Below are positions 30,001 through 36,000 of a stretch of 64,000 nt of DNA, in pieces. Within the stretch, counting starts at the first letter, position 1; each line of letters starts with the position of its first letter. The position numbers are program-made. The stretch comes from an uncultured Gemmatimonadales bacterium (GTDB taxonomy: Bacteria > Gemmatimonadota > Gemmatimonadetes > Gemmatimonadales > GWC2-71-9): positions 896,001 to 960,000 of the forward strand of contig CAWGED010000019.1 of assembly GCA_963821525.1 (NCBI GenBank), written 5' to 3'.

Positions 30001-33000
30001 TGGTTCGGCTCGCGAATGCTCCGCTTCGATCCAGCGACGCGCGCCGACGGCCTCACCTCCGTGAGGCGCAGCTACACCCGGATCGAACTGAAAACCCTGC
30101 TCTCCCGGGCCGGAATCGATGCGAACGTCGAACAGCGTCCCGGGTTCCGGCTCGTCGCGACGTGGCGCTCGGGATGAAGACCGTGGATGAGCGGCGCATG
30201 CGCGCGCCGGCCGACTTGGTGTTCAAGGCCGCGAGCGAGGTCGAGCGCTGGCCCGAATGGCTCACGCATTATCGCTGGGTCCGGATTCTCGAACGTCGCG
30301 CCGGAAGCGTCGTCGTCGAGATGGCGGCATGGAGACCATTCCCTGTAGGTAAATACCCTACATGGTGGGTATCCGAGATGTGGGTGAAACCGGCCGATCT
30401 TGAAGTCCGATACCGACATATCCGAGGGGTGACAAAAGGGATGGACGTCGTATGGCGGCTGGTGCCCTCCGGCGAATCAACGGACGTCTCCATTATTCAT
30501 GAGTGGGACGGCCCCCGCTGGCCCGTGATCGGGCGGCCGGCGGCGGAACTGGTGATCGGGCCGGTGTTTGTGCACGGCATCGCGTCGCGAACGCTGGCGG
30601 GAATAGCCCGTCACGTAGAAAAAGCCGCGATGGGAACAGCAGCGACGCCGTGATGAGCTAAGCAATACAAGAGGTAACATGGAAAATCAGAGAAGGGTCG
30701 TCATCACTGGAATCGGGGCCATCACTCCCATCGGCATTGGAGTGGACGCCGTGTGGGACGGCCTGCGGAGCCGCCGCTCGGCAGTACGGGAAATCACTCG
30801 CTTTGATGCATCACCATTCAAGTCGCGGATCGCCGCTCAAGTCGACGACTTCCATCCCACCGATCACATCGAGGAGCGCCGGGCCCGGCGGCTCGATCGC
30901 TACTCGATGTTCAGCGTGGCAGCGACCCGGATGGCGCTCAAGGACGCCGAAATTGATCTCGCGAAAGAGGATCGGGACCGGATTGGCGCGATGATGGGGA
31001 CGGCGCTGGGCGGCATCGCTCGGGCCGAAGCCGAGCACCGCCACTTCGTCGAAGGCGGAGTGCGGGCGGTAGAGCCAACGCTCGCGCTGCAGGTCTACGC
31101 CGGCGCGGCGAGTTGCAATATCGCAATAGAGTTCGGGGTTTGCGGACCCAATTCGACCAACGGGATGAGCTGTGCTTCAGGCACCATCGCGGTGGGCGAT
31201 GGCTTCCGCGCCATTGCACGGGGCGATGCGGACGTCATGGTAGCCGGCGGCGCGGAAGCTCCGCTGGCACCACTCTGCTTCGCCGCGTTTGCCATCATCC
31301 GGGCGATGTCTACCCGGAATGATGATCCTGCGACGGCCAGCCGTCCTTTCGACCGGCATCGCGATGGGTTCGTGATGGGGGAAGGCTCTGCGATTGTGGT
31401 TCTCGAGGAGCGGAATCGCGCGCTCAGCAGAGGCGCAAAGATCTACGCCGAGGTATGTGGGTACGGGCTCACCAATGACGCGTTCCATATGACTCAGCCG
31501 CGTCCCGATGCCCGCCAGGCGGCTCGCGCCATGTCCCTCGCGCTAGCCGAAGCGCGACTGACTCCCGGCGAGGTGGGGTACCTCAATGCGCACGGGTCCT
31601 CGACTCCGCTCAATGACCCGACGGAGACCGCGGCAATCAAGCAGGTGTTCGGAGAAGCCAGCAAGAGTCTCTTGCTGAGTGGGACCAAGGGCTACTATGG
31701 CCACGCCCTCGGCGCGAGCGGAGCGTTCGAAACTGTCATTTGTGCCTTGGCAAGCAGCCACCGGTGGCTTCCGCCGACGGTCAACCTCGCCGATCCCGAC
31801 CCGGCCTGTGACCTGGACTATATCGCCGGCGAAGGCCGCGAGGCCGATCCGGAATTCATCCTCACCAACTCGTTCGGTTTTGGAGGGATTAACGCCAGCC
31901 TGGTTCTCCGCCGAAACGACCCCTAGAGCGCCGGGGGACCACCGTTTACAGTTCACCGTCCCTTAAGCGGCCTTCACCCTTTCCTCCCGGAGCCATGGCG
32001 TCACTCACCCGCCGGTTGACGGCAGAAGCCCTCGGCACCTTCAGTTTCGTATTCATCGGATGCGCCTCGGTTACCGCTGCTGGAATCATCGGTGGCGACG
32101 GCGGGGTCCTCGGCGTCGCATTCGCGCACGCGGTCGCATTGTCGGTCATGATCACGGCCACGATGAACATCTCGGGTGGCCATTTGAATCCGGCCGTGAC
32201 GCTCAGCCTGCTCAGCGTGCGCCGCATCGATGCCAAATCCGCTCTCCTTTATATAGTCGCACAGTTGGGCGGTGCCGCCCTGGGCGCTCTGCTGGTCAAG
32301 CTCCTCTACGGCCACAACTTCACTCATCCGATCACCCTCGGTACTCCAAGCCTGGCCAACACCATGACCTGGGGCACCGCGATCGGAATCGAAGCAGTCT
32401 TGACCTTCTTCCTCGTGTCAGCGGTCTTCGGCACCGCCGTGTCGCCCGACGCCCCCAAGGTGGGAGGGTTCGGCATCGGCATGGTTCTGCTATTTGACAT
32501 CATCGCCGGCGGCGCCTTGACCGGTGCAGTCATGAACCCCGCTCGCGCGTTTGGGCCGGCACTCATCTCGGGTACCTGGTACGCCCAACCGGTCTGGTGG
32601 ATCGGTCCTATACTGGGCGGGCTTGTCGCGGCGCAGATCTGGGAGAGGGTGCTGCTGAAGAAGGACTAGAAGAGGAAGTAATAATGGCGAGAATTGAAGA
32701 TTGAAGATTGCAGATTGAAGATTTGATGAACAGTTGTTTTTTCAATCTGCAATCTGAAATCAGCAATCTTCAATTCTCCTCCCTGTTCACCCGTCTGGCC
32801 CTCCCCCACAACACCAGCACATAACCCAGGTAGATCACGGTGGCCACGACGTAGGCGGCGACCATGTATCCGCCGTTGCTTGGGGTCTCAGGCATGGCCC
32901 CGCTCCTCGGCCTCCTGGGCCAGTCTGATTCCGTAAGCCAGCGTCACCAATCCGACATACAGAAGCGTGAATGCGGCGAAGGAGATCAAGAGCGTCCGCA

Positions 33001-36000
33001 GCATCTCCGGATCGAGCGATGGAGCGCTCGGCTTGAGCACGATCGGGATCGGGTGTAGCCCCCGAAACAGATAGACGCTCAGGTGAATGAAGGGCACCAG
33101 GACCATCGCCATGATGCCAACGACGGCCGAGAGTCGTGCCCGCTCGGTGGGCACCCGGATGGCGGATCGGAGGACCTGGTATCCGAGCAGGAGGAAGAAC
33201 AGAAAGAGCGTCAGCGACAGGCGCGCGTCCCAGGTCCACCAGGCGCCCCAGATCGGCTTTCCCCAGATGGGACCGGTAGTGAGCACCACGGCACAGAACA
33301 CGGTTCCGACTTCGGCCGAAGTCGCGGCGAAGCGGTCGAAGTGCTGGTCGCCCAACCAGAGATAGAGGATGCTGGCGAGACCGGTCAGGCCAACCGCCAG
33401 GAACGCACACCACGCCGATGGCGCATGGATGTAGAAGATTTTCTGAGCCAGTCCCTGCCTGATCTCGGTCGGGGTAAAACGCTGGGCGAGGACCACCATG
33501 CCGGCCAGCGCCAGGAGGGCTAGCAGGGTGAGCCGCCAGCCTCGGCGGACCAGGATTTGGGCCCGGATGGGATCGGCGTTCATTCGTCTACTACAGCAGA
33601 GAATAGAAGCAGAGAGACCGTGATAAATGCCACATCGTAGAGTACCAGCAACCTAAGCCCTCCCGCCACCTCGCTCAACGCACGGCCCGTCAGAAGCCGC
33701 ATCGTAATCTGCACTGCAAAGATGAGAGGCGGCACCATGAAGGGGAGGAGCAGAACCGGCAGCATCAGCTCGGCAAAGCGGGTTCGCACTACGATTGCGC
33801 TGAAGAGAGTTCCCACCGAAACCAGTCCTGCCGTGGCCAGAAGAAGGGTGACCACCAGCCCCGGCAGCGCCTGACTCAGATCGACGTTGAAAAAAAGCAC
33901 GAACAAGGGCAGCGCGATGACCTCGACCAGGAGCACGAAGGTCAGGTTCGCCAGGTACTTCCCCAGGAACAGCACCTCCCGGGAGACGGGGGCCAAAAGC
34001 AAGCCGTCAAAGGCGTGATTCTCCCGCTCGACGGCAAACCCGCGGTTCATCGCCACCACCGCGGCAAACGCCACCGTCACCCAGAGGATGCCCGGCGCGA
34101 GATCGATCGTAGCCACTGCGGTCGGGTCGCGCGCGAAGTTGAACACGACGAGCAGCAGAGCCGCGAACATCGCCGCCGAGAGGAAACTGGTGCGGCTCCG
34201 CAATTCGGCACGGAGATCCTTGGCCGCAATCGCCAGTGCGAGCCGCAGGCTCTCAACCACGCGCGAGCTCCTGGTAACGGGTCACGAACTGTTCGAGCGA
34301 CGCGCCTCGCGGTTCCTGCAGGGCCCACTGGCCAGCTCGAAGGACACCTACTCGAGTCGCCAGATCCCAGGCTTCGTCCGGATGATGGGTGACGAGAACG
34401 ACGGCCCGACCGCCGAGACACCGCTCGCGCAGGAGGGTACGAAGAAGCTGCGCCGAGCCCGTATCGAGTCCGGTGAAGGGCTCGTCGAGTAGCAGCACGG
34501 CAGGATCATGGATCAGAGCGCGCGCGATGGCCACCCGCTGCTCCAGCCCGCGGCTCAGGTCCCGGGGCAGGTCCCGGAGTCGCTCAGCCAGACCGAATCC
34601 CGCGAGCGCCTCGCGGGCCTTGTGCTCCGGCTGGGCCAGACCATACAGCCGCGCGGCAAAAGTGAGATTTTCGAGAAGCGTGAGGTCGTCGTAAAGCAGC
34701 GAGTGGTGGGAGAGAAACCCGATGGGACGGCGGCTCTCGGGTTCGCTCGCACGAAGCCTTTGGCCGGCGATCCGCACCTCGCCGGCGCTCGGCTTGATGA
34801 GCCCGGCCAGCAGACGGAGCAAAGTTGTCTTCCCCGCCCCGTTGGGACCCAGCACCATCAACACCTCGCCGGCGCCGAGAGTGAGGTGGACGCCGGAAAC
34901 GGCGCGAACGGGCCCGTAGGCGCGCTCCAGACCGACCGCCTCGAGCGCCGGCCGGTCAGCGGAGAGCATCGATCCGGTCGCCGAGCTCGGATAGATCGAA
35001 GGGCTTTACCAGATATCCGCTGTGCGGCAGGTCCAGCACTTTGAGCTGGGGTTTGAGGCTGACGTAGGCGGAAGTGATAATGACGGGAAGGGCCGGCTGG
35101 ATTTCCCGAAGACGGCGGATGAGCTCGATGCCGTCGGTGTCGGGAAGCCGCATATCGAGTACGGCAACGTCAGGCGGCTGCTCCTGGGCCAACCGAATCG
35201 CTTCGGCACCGGTTGCCGCAAACGAAGCGGCGTACCGGGCGGCAAAGTACCGCTCGTAGCTCAGGCGAATAGCCGGCTCGTCCTCGACAAAGAGAACCCG
35301 CCGGCGCGCGGGGGGGTGAGCCATCCCCCCCAATATAGCCCTTAGACCGCGGCCTCCAGCTGGAACAGGTCATCCAGTTTGGTGAGTACCAGCAGGAATC
35401 GAAGTTCGTCGTTCGCATTCCTGAGCACCACCACTTGGCGCCGCTCCGAAGCCCGGCGCTGCACCAGCATGAGCGCTCCGAGACCCGCCGAATCCACCTG
35501 CCGGGTACCGCTCAGGTCGATGATCAGGCGACCGGTACGCTCGGGCAGCTGCTCGAGCAGGGTCACCGCCGCCTGGCGGAACTCGGTGCGGGACTCCAGA
35601 CCGAGATGCTCGGGTGCTGCCAACTCCAGGGACGTCGTTTGCGTGGTGAACATCGTGTCCTCCCACGCCCGAATACACAGAAGCGCGATCGTTCGCCGCC
35701 TGCTACTTCCGCGGGACGCTCGCGCTTTCGCGCTGCACCCGCCTTCGGCACCGAGCTATCTCCTGCGCCACTCGCGCATGAGACCTCTAGTTTTGCGGCC
35801 CCGGATCACTCCGGGTGTGCTATTATCGGGCGAGTCAATTGTTTTGGAACCCTTGTGGGTTCCGGCCATAACAATTGGCTAGTCCAGTGCCAAACTACCT
35901 TAAGTTGTTATAATATAGCCACTTACAGATTTGCATTCGGTGCAGATTCGGCCTGTTTTGCCTAGCACTACGCAGCAGTTCAGGGAGCTTTGCTAGCCAC

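Follow-up and report, generated by a model that had tools for sequence, protein, structure and literature searches.

An A-bearing class II GEMM-I RNA between a sigma-54-type promoter and a haem-export operon in a soil Gemmatimonadales bacterium

A GEMM-I RNA with A at the position equivalent to Vc2 G20 sits between a sigma-54-type promoter and a haem-export operon in the 64,000-nucleotide stretch of DNA analysed here (the window), which comes from a soil bacterium of the Gemmatimonadales. The RNA belongs to a distinct, nearly invariant GEMM-I subclass of the Gemmatimonadales, named class II. As a whole, the best explanation, to which we give about an even chance, is that a class II aptamer transcribed from the sigma-54-type promoter would act as an OFF switch on the ccm operon and would be either c-di-GMP-responsive or bispecific.

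The Rfam covariance model RF01051 matched positions 35744-35831 of the minus strand over its full length (1-87) with 49.2 bits (E 1.3e-6, cut-off 35 bits); no other Rfam family passed its gathering score anywhere in the window. Helix P1a included, the aptamer covers 35737..35835 (minus strand), with P1a strands ACUCGCC (5') and GGCGGGU (3'). At model position 11, immediately 5' of the first paired G-C, the cmscan alignment places A in the window RNA versus G in the consensus. We take model position 11 to be Vc2 G20 and position 83 to be C92, the Vc2 numbering being our assumption. It was used with the description in PMC6140456. The A20-equivalent is thus 35821 and the C92-equivalent, kept as C, is 35748 (both minus strand, inside the aptamer); the ligand-contacting A47-equivalent was kept too. 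A second copy (C19:396939-397024, plus strand, 46.4 bits) likewise has A at model position 11, and the product of the gene behind it has a signal of the lipoprotein type and contains HEMLH. The initial annotation, which had described a real cyclic-dinucleotide riboswitch in two copies with A for the consensus G, the second fronting a secreted HExxH protein, was confirmed on these points by the scores, the cmscan alignments and the product itself.

Class II RNAs carry A at the G20-equivalent, keep C92 and have a P3 base one pair below consensus length, and their core departs from the consensus in GCACAC for GCAAAC, GCCGC for GACGC, and AAAAC with one P3 pair lost. Among 85 distinct RNAs, 95.9% of helix cells were paired, versus 28-44% with slid partners, and compensatory changes occurred at 7 pairs. 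The core was near-invariant over more than 25 genera, with A at position 20 in all readable class II RNAs (27/27 and 66/66). Compared with the c-di-GMP riboswitch Vc2 of Vibrio cholerae (RF01051), the window RNA has the same fold by covariance model with helices backed by covariation, and shares the two-hairpin architecture, the GCAAA junction and C92; it differs by A at the G20-equivalent, by three further subclass-specific core changes, by its sigma-54-type promoter and by its putative control of a STAS-ccmABCD operon.

GEMM-I was present in 54 of the 61 family genomes surveyed, all of them MAGs, which bears out on a larger scale the earlier statement that it is widespread in the family. The class II RNA precedes the STAS gene in 26 of the 61, with A in 26/26, and GEMM-I was also found ahead of it at 67 of 80 further STAS loci from public MAGs. 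Typing of 134 GEMM-I RNAs of the family, which excludes the single match of genome G014, gave 81 A-type, 52 G-type and 1 C-type. A-type RNAs had been thought restricted to the ccm locus, which proved wrong, since 36 class III, 9 class II and 10 other A-type RNAs were found elsewhere, the nine class II RNAs being the second copy in this genome (G000) and eight in other genomes. Eleven of the 26 genomes with the ccm riboswitch also have G-type RNAs, a point that would fit two ligands.

The sigma-54-type promoter element TGGCAC-N5-TAGC (-24 GG / -12 GC; 35878..35892, minus strand) was recognised by motif and conservation. Of 84 distinct sequences upstream of the aptamer, 81 contain TGGCAY-N5-TNGC at a distance of 55-68 nt from it, versus none of the 84 reverse complements, and rpoN was present in the genome. 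Between promoter and aptamer, a 5' leader hairpin (35846..35863, minus strand) occupies the same place in most relatives with different stem sequences.

The operon behind the riboswitch lies on the minus strand throughout. It starts with a STAS-domain protein of 103 aa (35342..35653; Pfam STAS_2, 46.8 bits; invariant VDSAGLG in alignment A6), whose orthologues adjoin ccm genes throughout the family, and a single-domain response-regulator receiver (34956..35333; Response_reg, 84 bits), 125 aa as called with an uncertain start, which was missing from 7 of 22 orthologous operons. Then follow ccmA for the haem-exporter ATPase (34253..34969; TIGR01189 145.8 bits, NCBIfam equivalog cut-off 131.6), ccmB (33580..34260; Pfam CcmB, 117.7 bits), the single ccmB match in the genome, and ccmC (32888..33583; Cytochrom_C_asm, 83.1 bits), whose product matched TIGR01191 best, with 138 bits, under the cut-off of 186, and shows the Trp-rich stretch WGAWWTWD. 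The last ORF (32770..32895), of 41 aa with one hydrophobic helix, had no family match and was named ccmD-like from size, position and hydrophobicity only. Thus the Pfam assignments agreed with the STAS - receiver - ccmABC operon first proposed, with CcmA also above its equivalog cut-off. ccmE and ccmF were located elsewhere, and no ResB match was found in the genome, which is 81% complete.

The expression platform (35654..35736, minus strand) comprises two alternative hairpins and the Shine-Dalgarno (SD) sequence GGGAGGA (35658-35664). The antiterminator-like hairpin (35711-35742) has the P1a 3' strand as its 5' arm and hence overlaps the aptamer by 6 nt, while the long alternative hairpin (35675-35733), predicted by the folding model, is followed by CUGUGUAUU; UCGGGCG (35666-35672) is complementary to the aptamer 5' strand. 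When the P1a 3' strand was free, the antiterminator-like hairpin was predicted (-22.8 kcal/mol), and when it was blocked, the long hairpin. Among 83 distinct platforms, 21 place the SD no more than 25 nt from the aptamer, with GGAGGA replacing the P1a 3' strand. The riboswitch is read as an OFF switch because the P1 3' strand is the SD in about one quarter of the orthologues, and for the window leader the two alternative hairpins would point to the same sign. In short leaders with P1a forced, modelled SD-to-AUG accessibility went down in 15/24 and up in 2/24. Thermodynamic modelling of 60 long leaders gave no SD-accessibility signal (means 0.48 and 0.45; 4 down, 10 up), and SD accessibility was unchanged in the long leader of the window, whose long hairpin has a weak U-tract behind it and was not flagged by a simple terminator scan. 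For the window these results speak against the OFF reading.

An ON switch as in the Geobacter GEMM-Ib RNAs, in which the ligand would block a terminator or open the ribosome-binding site, is possible but doubtful. A GC-rich hairpin with a U-rich run behind it is common among the long leaders, which would suit it (e.g. the second copy in the genome, ...GCGCUUUUGUGUUCU), and in several of them this hairpin forms irrespective of the P1a strand being free, as was seen for the terminator-like hairpin of the second copy; loss of cGAMP also lowers GEMM-Ib transcripts in Geobacter, according to a passage of PMC6456294. However, the SD being the P1a 3' strand itself in the 21 platforms is compatible with OFF only, and in the window the hairpin competing with the terminator-like one uses the P1a 3' strand as an arm.

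As for the ligand, a cGAMP reading of the window RNA is only partly supported. The initial annotation had placed the riboswitch in the cGAMP class on account of A20, which was not supported: the sequence evidence does not point to cGAMP over c-di-GMP, and the natural A20 riboswitch Cbe 1-2 prefers c-di-GMP (Kd 30 nM versus 463 nM for cGAMP; a passage of PMC6140456). Its caution that A20 alone is insufficient for selectivity was well founded, since Vc2 G20A takes both ligands, 53 and 120 nM (same source, in part). A pocket with A20 and C92 can accept 3',3'-cGAMP or c-di-GMP. Cbe 1-2 of Clostridium beijerinckii is bispecific and likened to the window RNA by A20 alone, being from another organism with another gene context; by this analogy from part of PMC6140456, A20 RNAs outside Geobacter can serve c-di-GMP. 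On balance we favour a c-di-GMP-responsive or bispecific window RNA over a cGAMP-only sensor of the Geobacter type, counting against this that A is invariant in all class II RNAs though G would bind c-di-GMP tighter. It is improbable that the aptamer reads another G-containing dinucleotide, linear or cyclic, or is a structured leader that binds no ligand: several class II core positions do depart from the consensus, but the near-invariance of the core over the genera, the helix covariation and the retained A47-equivalent and C92 speak for a functional pocket.

The Geobacter GEMM-Ib 3',3'-cGAMP riboswitches Gs1761 and Gm0970 likewise have A at the G20-equivalent and keep C92, a likeness at sequence level that leaves the selectivity of the window RNA aside. 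A thematic link to c-type cytochromes is also shared, many cytochrome genes having GEMM-Ib upstream (PMC6456294, in part). In contrast, the sign in the window is likely OFF rather than ON, the RNA targets the maturation machinery and not cytochrome structural genes, the phylum is another, and 24 of the 26 class II ccm genomes yielded no canonical Ser/Tyr Hypr GGDEF.

Candidate synthases were surveyed by GGDEF motif patterns, which may miss variants. The genome has 13 Pfam GGDEF matches, and the nine parsed by motif were 1 Ser (C16), 1 Asn (C19:821400-821870) and 7 Asp, in line with the earlier inventory; cross-dimer Arg was found in 5 of the 7 Asp-type. Ser-type GGDEFs occurred in 2/26 genomes with the ccm riboswitch versus 14/35 without, Thr-type in none of the 61 family genomes, and the SMODS CD-NTase family exceeded its cut-off in only 1/61. 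Genomes G060 (98% complete, 7 of 9 GGDEF matches readable) and G004 (8 GGDEF domains readable) have the riboswitch with all readable GGDEFs Asp-type. These results tell against a cGAMP-only sensor.

The initial annotation had the Ser-type GGDEF g03592 (C16:14512-15963) supply a cGAMP riboswitch, which is very improbable. The protein does read GHDVGS...GGDEF, with Ser348 and GGDEF, and an orthologue was found in the same-genus genome G015, contrary to the earlier view that none was close. However, it has Arg at the Hypr cross-dimer position, a residue tied to more c-di-GMP output in a passage of PMC6456294; it was found in one genus only (2/26 riboswitch genomes), whereas the aptamer is almost identical in 26/26; and its contig measures 24 kb, a broken near-copy being present on contig C15 of 15 kb.

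Unlikely, though far less remote, is that the same RNA with the same OFF logic is cGAMP-selective and GEMM-Ib-like, its signal coming from a family-wide Fer4/Fe-hydrogenase-like/FeS-GGDEF instead of g03592. A Fe-S/hydrogenase-like GGDEF with Asn or Ser for the guanine-reading Asp was found in 52/61 family genomes; the Asn-type pattern was seen in 48/61, and 23 of the 26 ccm-riboswitch genomes are among these. Tyr or Phe occupies the cross-dimer position in 26 out of 30 Asn-type sequences read, set against Arg in most Asp-type of this genome, and non-Arg residues there mark cGAMP-making Hypr enzymes (PMC6456294, in part). Four more genomes (G020, G042, G050, G056) have a Ser version of the same architecture, therefore Ser and Asn swap within one orthologous group, as they do in the MASE1-GGDEF group (G015 L268). 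Like Hypr GacA of Geobacter, the MASE1-GGDEF group has Ser348, GGDEF and cross-dimer Tyr (11/12 sequences), and the Fe-S group has Asn or Ser plus cross-dimer Tyr or Phe; unlike GacA, which has a receiver, the family enzymes have MASE1 or Fe-S/hydrogenase-like sensors, Asn at position 348 is no described Hypr signature, and g03592 has the cross-dimer Arg. The Asn-type g04535, which the initial annotation had only counted, belongs to this family-wide enzyme, shows Hypr-like features and could yield an A-containing dinucleotide. The invariant A20, the kept C92 and the A-type majority (81/134) would fit a cGAMP-selective RNA, but A20 by itself confers no selectivity (PMC6140456, in part). Moreover, no characterised Asn-type GGDEF was found in the passages of the literature dealing with such enzymes, and the search pattern demanded GGDEF, so that an exclusive pairing of Asn with GGDEF is built in. 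The Asn/Ser Fe-S enzyme was also found in 6 of 7 genomes without any GEMM-I match and hence is not linked to the riboswitch; no Asn-type-enzyme orthologue was found at E <= 1e-30 in G060, G004 and G054, which carry the riboswitch; and bona fide Ser/Tyr enzymes co-occur with A-type class III, not class II.

In the favoured explanation, a c-di-GMP-responsive or bispecific OFF switch, a leader transcribed from the sigma-54-type promoter would fold into the class II aptamer, and binding of a cyclic dinucleotide would close helix P1a. This would sequester the P1a 3' strand, which is the SD in about one quarter of orthologues and an antiterminator-like hairpin arm in the window, so that the ligand would turn the STAS-(receiver)-ccmABCD operon OFF. 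The riboswitch is conserved before STAS-receiver-ccmABC, which supports the original proposal of cyclic-dinucleotide control and would subject the opening step of cytochrome c maturation to it. As the sole ccmAB(C) set of this System I organism is in the operon, the switch would throttle haem delivery for all cytochrome c maturation; if instead the cGAMP-selective alternative were true, the haem export that serves this maturation would be set by a cyclase responding to redox state or H2.

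The sole Rfam family above its gathering score in the 64 kb of the window was GEMM-I (RF01051, cmscan), which was located at 35744-35831 on the minus strand with 49.2 bits against a gathering score of 35, covering model positions 1-87 (full model). By its predicted fold this RNA is a member of GEMM-I. A second copy (C19:396939-397024, 46.4 bits) existed in the assembly, a MAG of 4.33 Mb in 19 contigs with 81% completeness. In the available text of PMC6140456, the bases of the ligand are read by two residues, G20 and C92, and GEMM-Ib RNAs are marked by an A where G20 would be. 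The cmscan alignment placed an A at 35821 (model position 11), where the consensus has an unpaired G directly 5' of the first G-C pair, and the C of the 3' gCCgaa was retained at 35748. We take these two positions to be the equivalents of G20 and C92 in the numbering of the Vibrio cholerae aptamer Vc2, under which the window RNA carries the GEMM-Ib mark, and the substitution reported in the initial annotation was found in place.

On the same strand, the aptamer was followed by genes for a STAS protein, a single-domain receiver, an ABC ATPase, CcmB and a CcmC-type protein, the order that had been annotated, and further 3' by a ccmD-like ORF of 41 aa. CcmA was above the NCBIfam equivalog cut-off (TIGR01189), and the Pfam matches to CcmB and Cytochrom_C_asm were above their cut-offs, with the TIGR ccmB and ccmC models below theirs. 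With CcmA, CcmB and CcmC matched in one operon and ccmE and ccmF located elsewhere, on contigs C5 and C8, the genes have the arrangement of a System I CcmABC(D) module. Since ccmB was single in the genome, ccmE and ccmF were encoded apart from it and no ResB match was found in the 81% complete assembly, the regulated genes are the sole module for haem delivery in this System I organism.

A VDSAGLG motif in the STAS protein was invariant in the alignment; it has Ala where the DSSG phosphorylation motif of SpoIIAA-type proteins has its second Ser. The receiver gene was absent from 7 of 22 orthologous operons (L052, L047, L039, L054, L051, L055 and L041), where the STAS gene lies directly 5' of ccmA, thus the conserved core is the STAS-ccmA pair. 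A similar pairing is that of MlaB, a STAS protein, with MlaF, an ABC ATPase. A complex prediction for STAS and CcmA (score 0.13, mark 0.32) spoke neither for nor against an interaction. The stretch from the STAS stop codon to the receiver domain (35297-35341, minus strand) has a G7...C7 run able to form a hairpin and, after it, the terminator-like hairpin CCCGCGCGCCGGCGGG, then UUCUCUUUGU. With TTG taken as the start of the receiver ORF, this hairpin falls within the 5' part of that ORF. The true start of the receiver may therefore be further on, or an internal attenuator may separate STAS from the genes behind it.

The distribution of the riboswitch was followed in 61 family genomes (60 genera and the window's own), and these MAG-based tallies include the unpublished G014. 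GEMM-I matches were revealed in 54 of the 61 genomes, ccmB in 60 and a STAS orthologue in 57, the latter two mostly adjoining. GEMM-I was located immediately 5' of the STAS gene in 26/61 genomes (coordinates cross-read); two of these 26 RNAs were under the Rfam cut-off and reached 53-63 bits with R1, a model built in this analysis. The 29 STAS loci without Rfam match were re-searched with R1 to E = 1 and yielded no aptamer, so at that level a lack of sensitivity does not explain its absence from them. Among the 80 closest STAS loci from public MAGs, 67 had the aptamer.

Every STAS-upstream GEMM-I RNA belonged to one subclass with a near-invariant core, named class II here, in which position 20 was A in all readable sequences (27/27 and 66/66) and the specific changes were GCACAC, GCCGC, and AAAAC with one P3 pair lost. 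Over 85 distinct class II RNAs, 95.9% of the helix cells were paired versus 28-44% with slid partners, and compensatory change on both sides occurred in 7 of 26 pairs, with P1a, P1b, P2 and P3 all kept. Helix P1a (5' UCCGCC / 3' GGYGGA) covaries, e.g. UCUGC with GCAGA. At another locus (L213, G016:C4:118013-120049) a class II aptamer was directly 5' of an ORF in which Rho RNA-binding and Rho ATPase domains were matched; as the start of this ORF was crudely picked, the link is tentative.

The remaining 107 family GEMM-I matches, beyond the STAS-upstream set, were typed as G-type (52), class III (36), class II copies at other loci (8), other A-type (10) and C at position 20 (1). A-type RNAs are thus the majority (81 of 134 typed GEMM-I RNAs), and they are not restricted to the ccm locus, with class III, class II copies and other A-types all occurring elsewhere. 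The second of the A-type classes, class III (CAGAGC...GCAGAGC...GCCGCCAGC), had its 36 copies in 15/61 genomes, frequently as tandem pairs or triplets and mostly ahead of large Big_2/Big_1 Ig-like surface proteins, as at L177 (G047:C3:2961-5313), L178, L191, L202 and L005. Among the first ORFs behind non-ccm riboswitches, 23/47 were without Pfam match, a count made with a crude ORF picker that often took spurious ORFs, which makes the gene links of class II copies outside ccm provisional.

A motif TGGCAY-N5-TNGC was observed 55-68 nt 5' of the aptamer in 81-83 of 84 distinct upstream sequences, and in 0/84 of their reverse complements. In the window it is TGGCAC-N5-TAGC (-24 GG / -12 GC) at 35878-35892 on the minus strand. 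With -24/-12 elements conserved at fixed spacing and rpoN present in the genome (216.9 bits), it has the features of a sigma-54 promoter, and a riboswitch downstream of such an enhancer-dependent promoter is an unusual combination. Each of the genome's two class II riboswitches lies behind such an element, which at the second copy (L002:1437-1451) reads TGGCAC-N5-TGGC.

Two kinds of leader, short and long, existed 3' of the class II aptamer. In short leaders the 3' strand of P1a is GGAGGA with the start codon 3-6 nt on (21 of 83 distinct platforms), and in thermodynamic modelling with P1a forced the accessibility from SD to AUG fell in 15 of 24 short leaders and rose in 2. Closure of P1a would conceal the ribosome-binding site, so the short-leader form is, as modelled, an OFF switch. 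The window leader is of the long kind (90 nt). When the 3' strand of its P1a (GGCGGGU) was free, folding gave a hairpin with CCCGC at 35711-35742 (-22.8 kcal/mol), and when this strand was blocked a long hairpin formed instead at 35675-35733, then CUGUGUAUU. The ligand-bound aptamer would block the strand, the long hairpin would form and attenuation would result. This exchange of hairpins points to OFF by attenuation in the window, and OFF is the probable sign of the switch. Three results weaken this reading: the U-tract after the window's long hairpin was weak, a simple terminator scan did not flag that hairpin, and comparison of P1a forced versus forbidden gave no signal in SD accessibility over 60 long leaders. 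An automatic terminator classifier flagged 3/62 long platforms, and it is crude, since outer pairs in the minimum-free-energy fold mask hairpins.

For the possible synthases, PMC6456294 in its available passages gives Ser/Thr at position 348 with GGDE[F/Y] as the criterion of Hypr enzymes, and reports a higher c-di-GMP output for Hypr enzymes whose cross-dimer residue is Arg, while those with Tyr, Ser, Ala or Gln produce mainly cGAMP. The GGDEF gene g03592 (C16:14512-15963), which the initial annotation proposed as a Hypr enzyme, does encode GHDVGS...GGDEF with Ser348, but its cross-dimer residue is Arg, 44 residues before the Ser (TGLHNRRGF), and not a non-Arg residue such as Tyr304 in GacA. 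This site was placed by counting from PleD/GacA numbering, which we assume to apply. Near-identical Ser-type copies were located on C15 (15 kb) and C16 (24 kb), in agreement with the small, haplotig-like contig suspected before. They lie at C15:12522-12928 and C16:14572-15030, the former broken across two frames, and are compatible with a MAG that contains strain variants or haplotigs.

Another GGDEF type, counted in the initial annotation, has Asn in place of the Asp that reads guanine; its pattern GHEAGN...GGDEF was revealed in 48/61 genomes, including 23 of the 26 with a ccm riboswitch. In the window's own genome it belongs to a 559 aa protein outside the window (C19:821400-821870, L269:1273-2949; orthologues L254-L283) with two 4Fe-4S motifs, a [FeFe]-hydrogenase large-subunit-like domain, a putative Fe-S domain and GGDEF. 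The architecture Fer4, Fe-hydrogenase-like, FeS and GGDEF was checked in four Asn and four Ser members, the same architecture having Ser at the 348-site in 4 further genomes. The cross-dimer residue was Tyr/Phe in 26/30 Asn-type sequences, one of them L273 of G014, versus Arg in 5/7 Asp-type enzymes of the window's genome. A MASE1-GGDEF group had Ser/Tyr in 11/12 sequences and an Asn member in G015. The exchange of Ser and Asn inside two orthologous groups suggests that both residues play an equal role.

On these sequence comparisons, we lean towards a ccm riboswitch that responds to c-di-GMP or is bispecific. According to the accessible parts of PMC6140456, Vc2 G20A binds c-di-GMP at 53 nM and cGAMP at 120 nM, and Cbe 1-2, an RNA that has A20 by nature, favours c-di-GMP (30 nM) over cGAMP (463 nM), so A20 is not sufficient for cGAMP selectivity. 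A cGAMP-selective riboswitch is less probable. It would agree with the GEMM-Ib mark and with position 20 being invariably A while G-type RNAs are also present in 11 of the 26 ccm-riboswitch genomes; the family-wide Asn-type enzymes with their Ser relatives and Tyr/Phe, and the Ser/Tyr MASE1 group with its Asn member, could supply the ligand. Against it, Ser-type GGDEF patterns, found in 16/61 genomes, occurred in only 2 of the 26 ccm-riboswitch genomes, the window's own and its congener G015. Thr-type patterns were found in 0/61 genomes and the CD-NTase family SMODS above cut-off in 1/61; SMODS was not found in the window's genome, as the earlier statement on CD-NTases had it. Moreover, two genomes with the ccm riboswitch, G060 (98% complete) and G004 (93% complete), had Asp-type GGDEF alone among 7 and 8 readable domains, respectively, with no orthologue of the Asn-type enzyme, and this enzyme was also present in 6 of 7 genomes without any GEMM-I.

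The specific proposal of cGAMP made by g03592 keeps its Ser348, but with the cross-dimer Arg and Ser-type enzymes so rare beside the riboswitch it is highly improbable, and some other ligand is quite unlikely. Ser/Tyr MASE1 enzymes accompany class III and not class II: MASE1-GGDEF with Ser348 and cross-dimer Tyr was present in 9 of the 15 class III genomes, with class III alone in 6, the enzyme alone in 3 and neither in 43, counted over mutually related genomes. As a candidate Hypr/cGAMP pair, class III RNA with MASE1-GGDEF seems more promising than the ccm riboswitch.

A broader scheme is conceivable, though we consider it unlikely, in which Gemmatimonadales have a second dinucleotide signal beside c-di-GMP, made by Asn/Ser + Tyr/Phe GGDEFs, one of them fused to a Fe-S/[FeFe]-hydrogenase-like sensor, and read by class II and class III A20 riboswitches, where class II would shut haem export and class III would control Ig-like surface proteins. 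If this were true, Asn at position 348 would count as a new signature of Hypr-type specificity.

Cytochrome c maturation is usually regarded as housekeeping, and Gemmatimonadota are common in soil with scarcely explored genetics. A search of a full-text library gave no publication that describes GEMM-I in Gemmatimonadota or links ccm genes to a riboswitch. The ccm riboswitch differs from Geobacter GEMM-Ib RNAs in its likely sign, target and promoter type. With it, CcmABCD, the entry step of cytochrome c maturation, stands behind both a sigma-54-type promoter and a predicted riboswitch for cyclic dinucleotides, a position that it shares with a STAS protein. With three aptamer classes (G-type and two A-types) and three GGDEF types (Asp, Ser and Asn), the family is a natural experiment on ligand choice, which could reveal whether a second messenger beyond Geobacter goes with A20 and Asn348.
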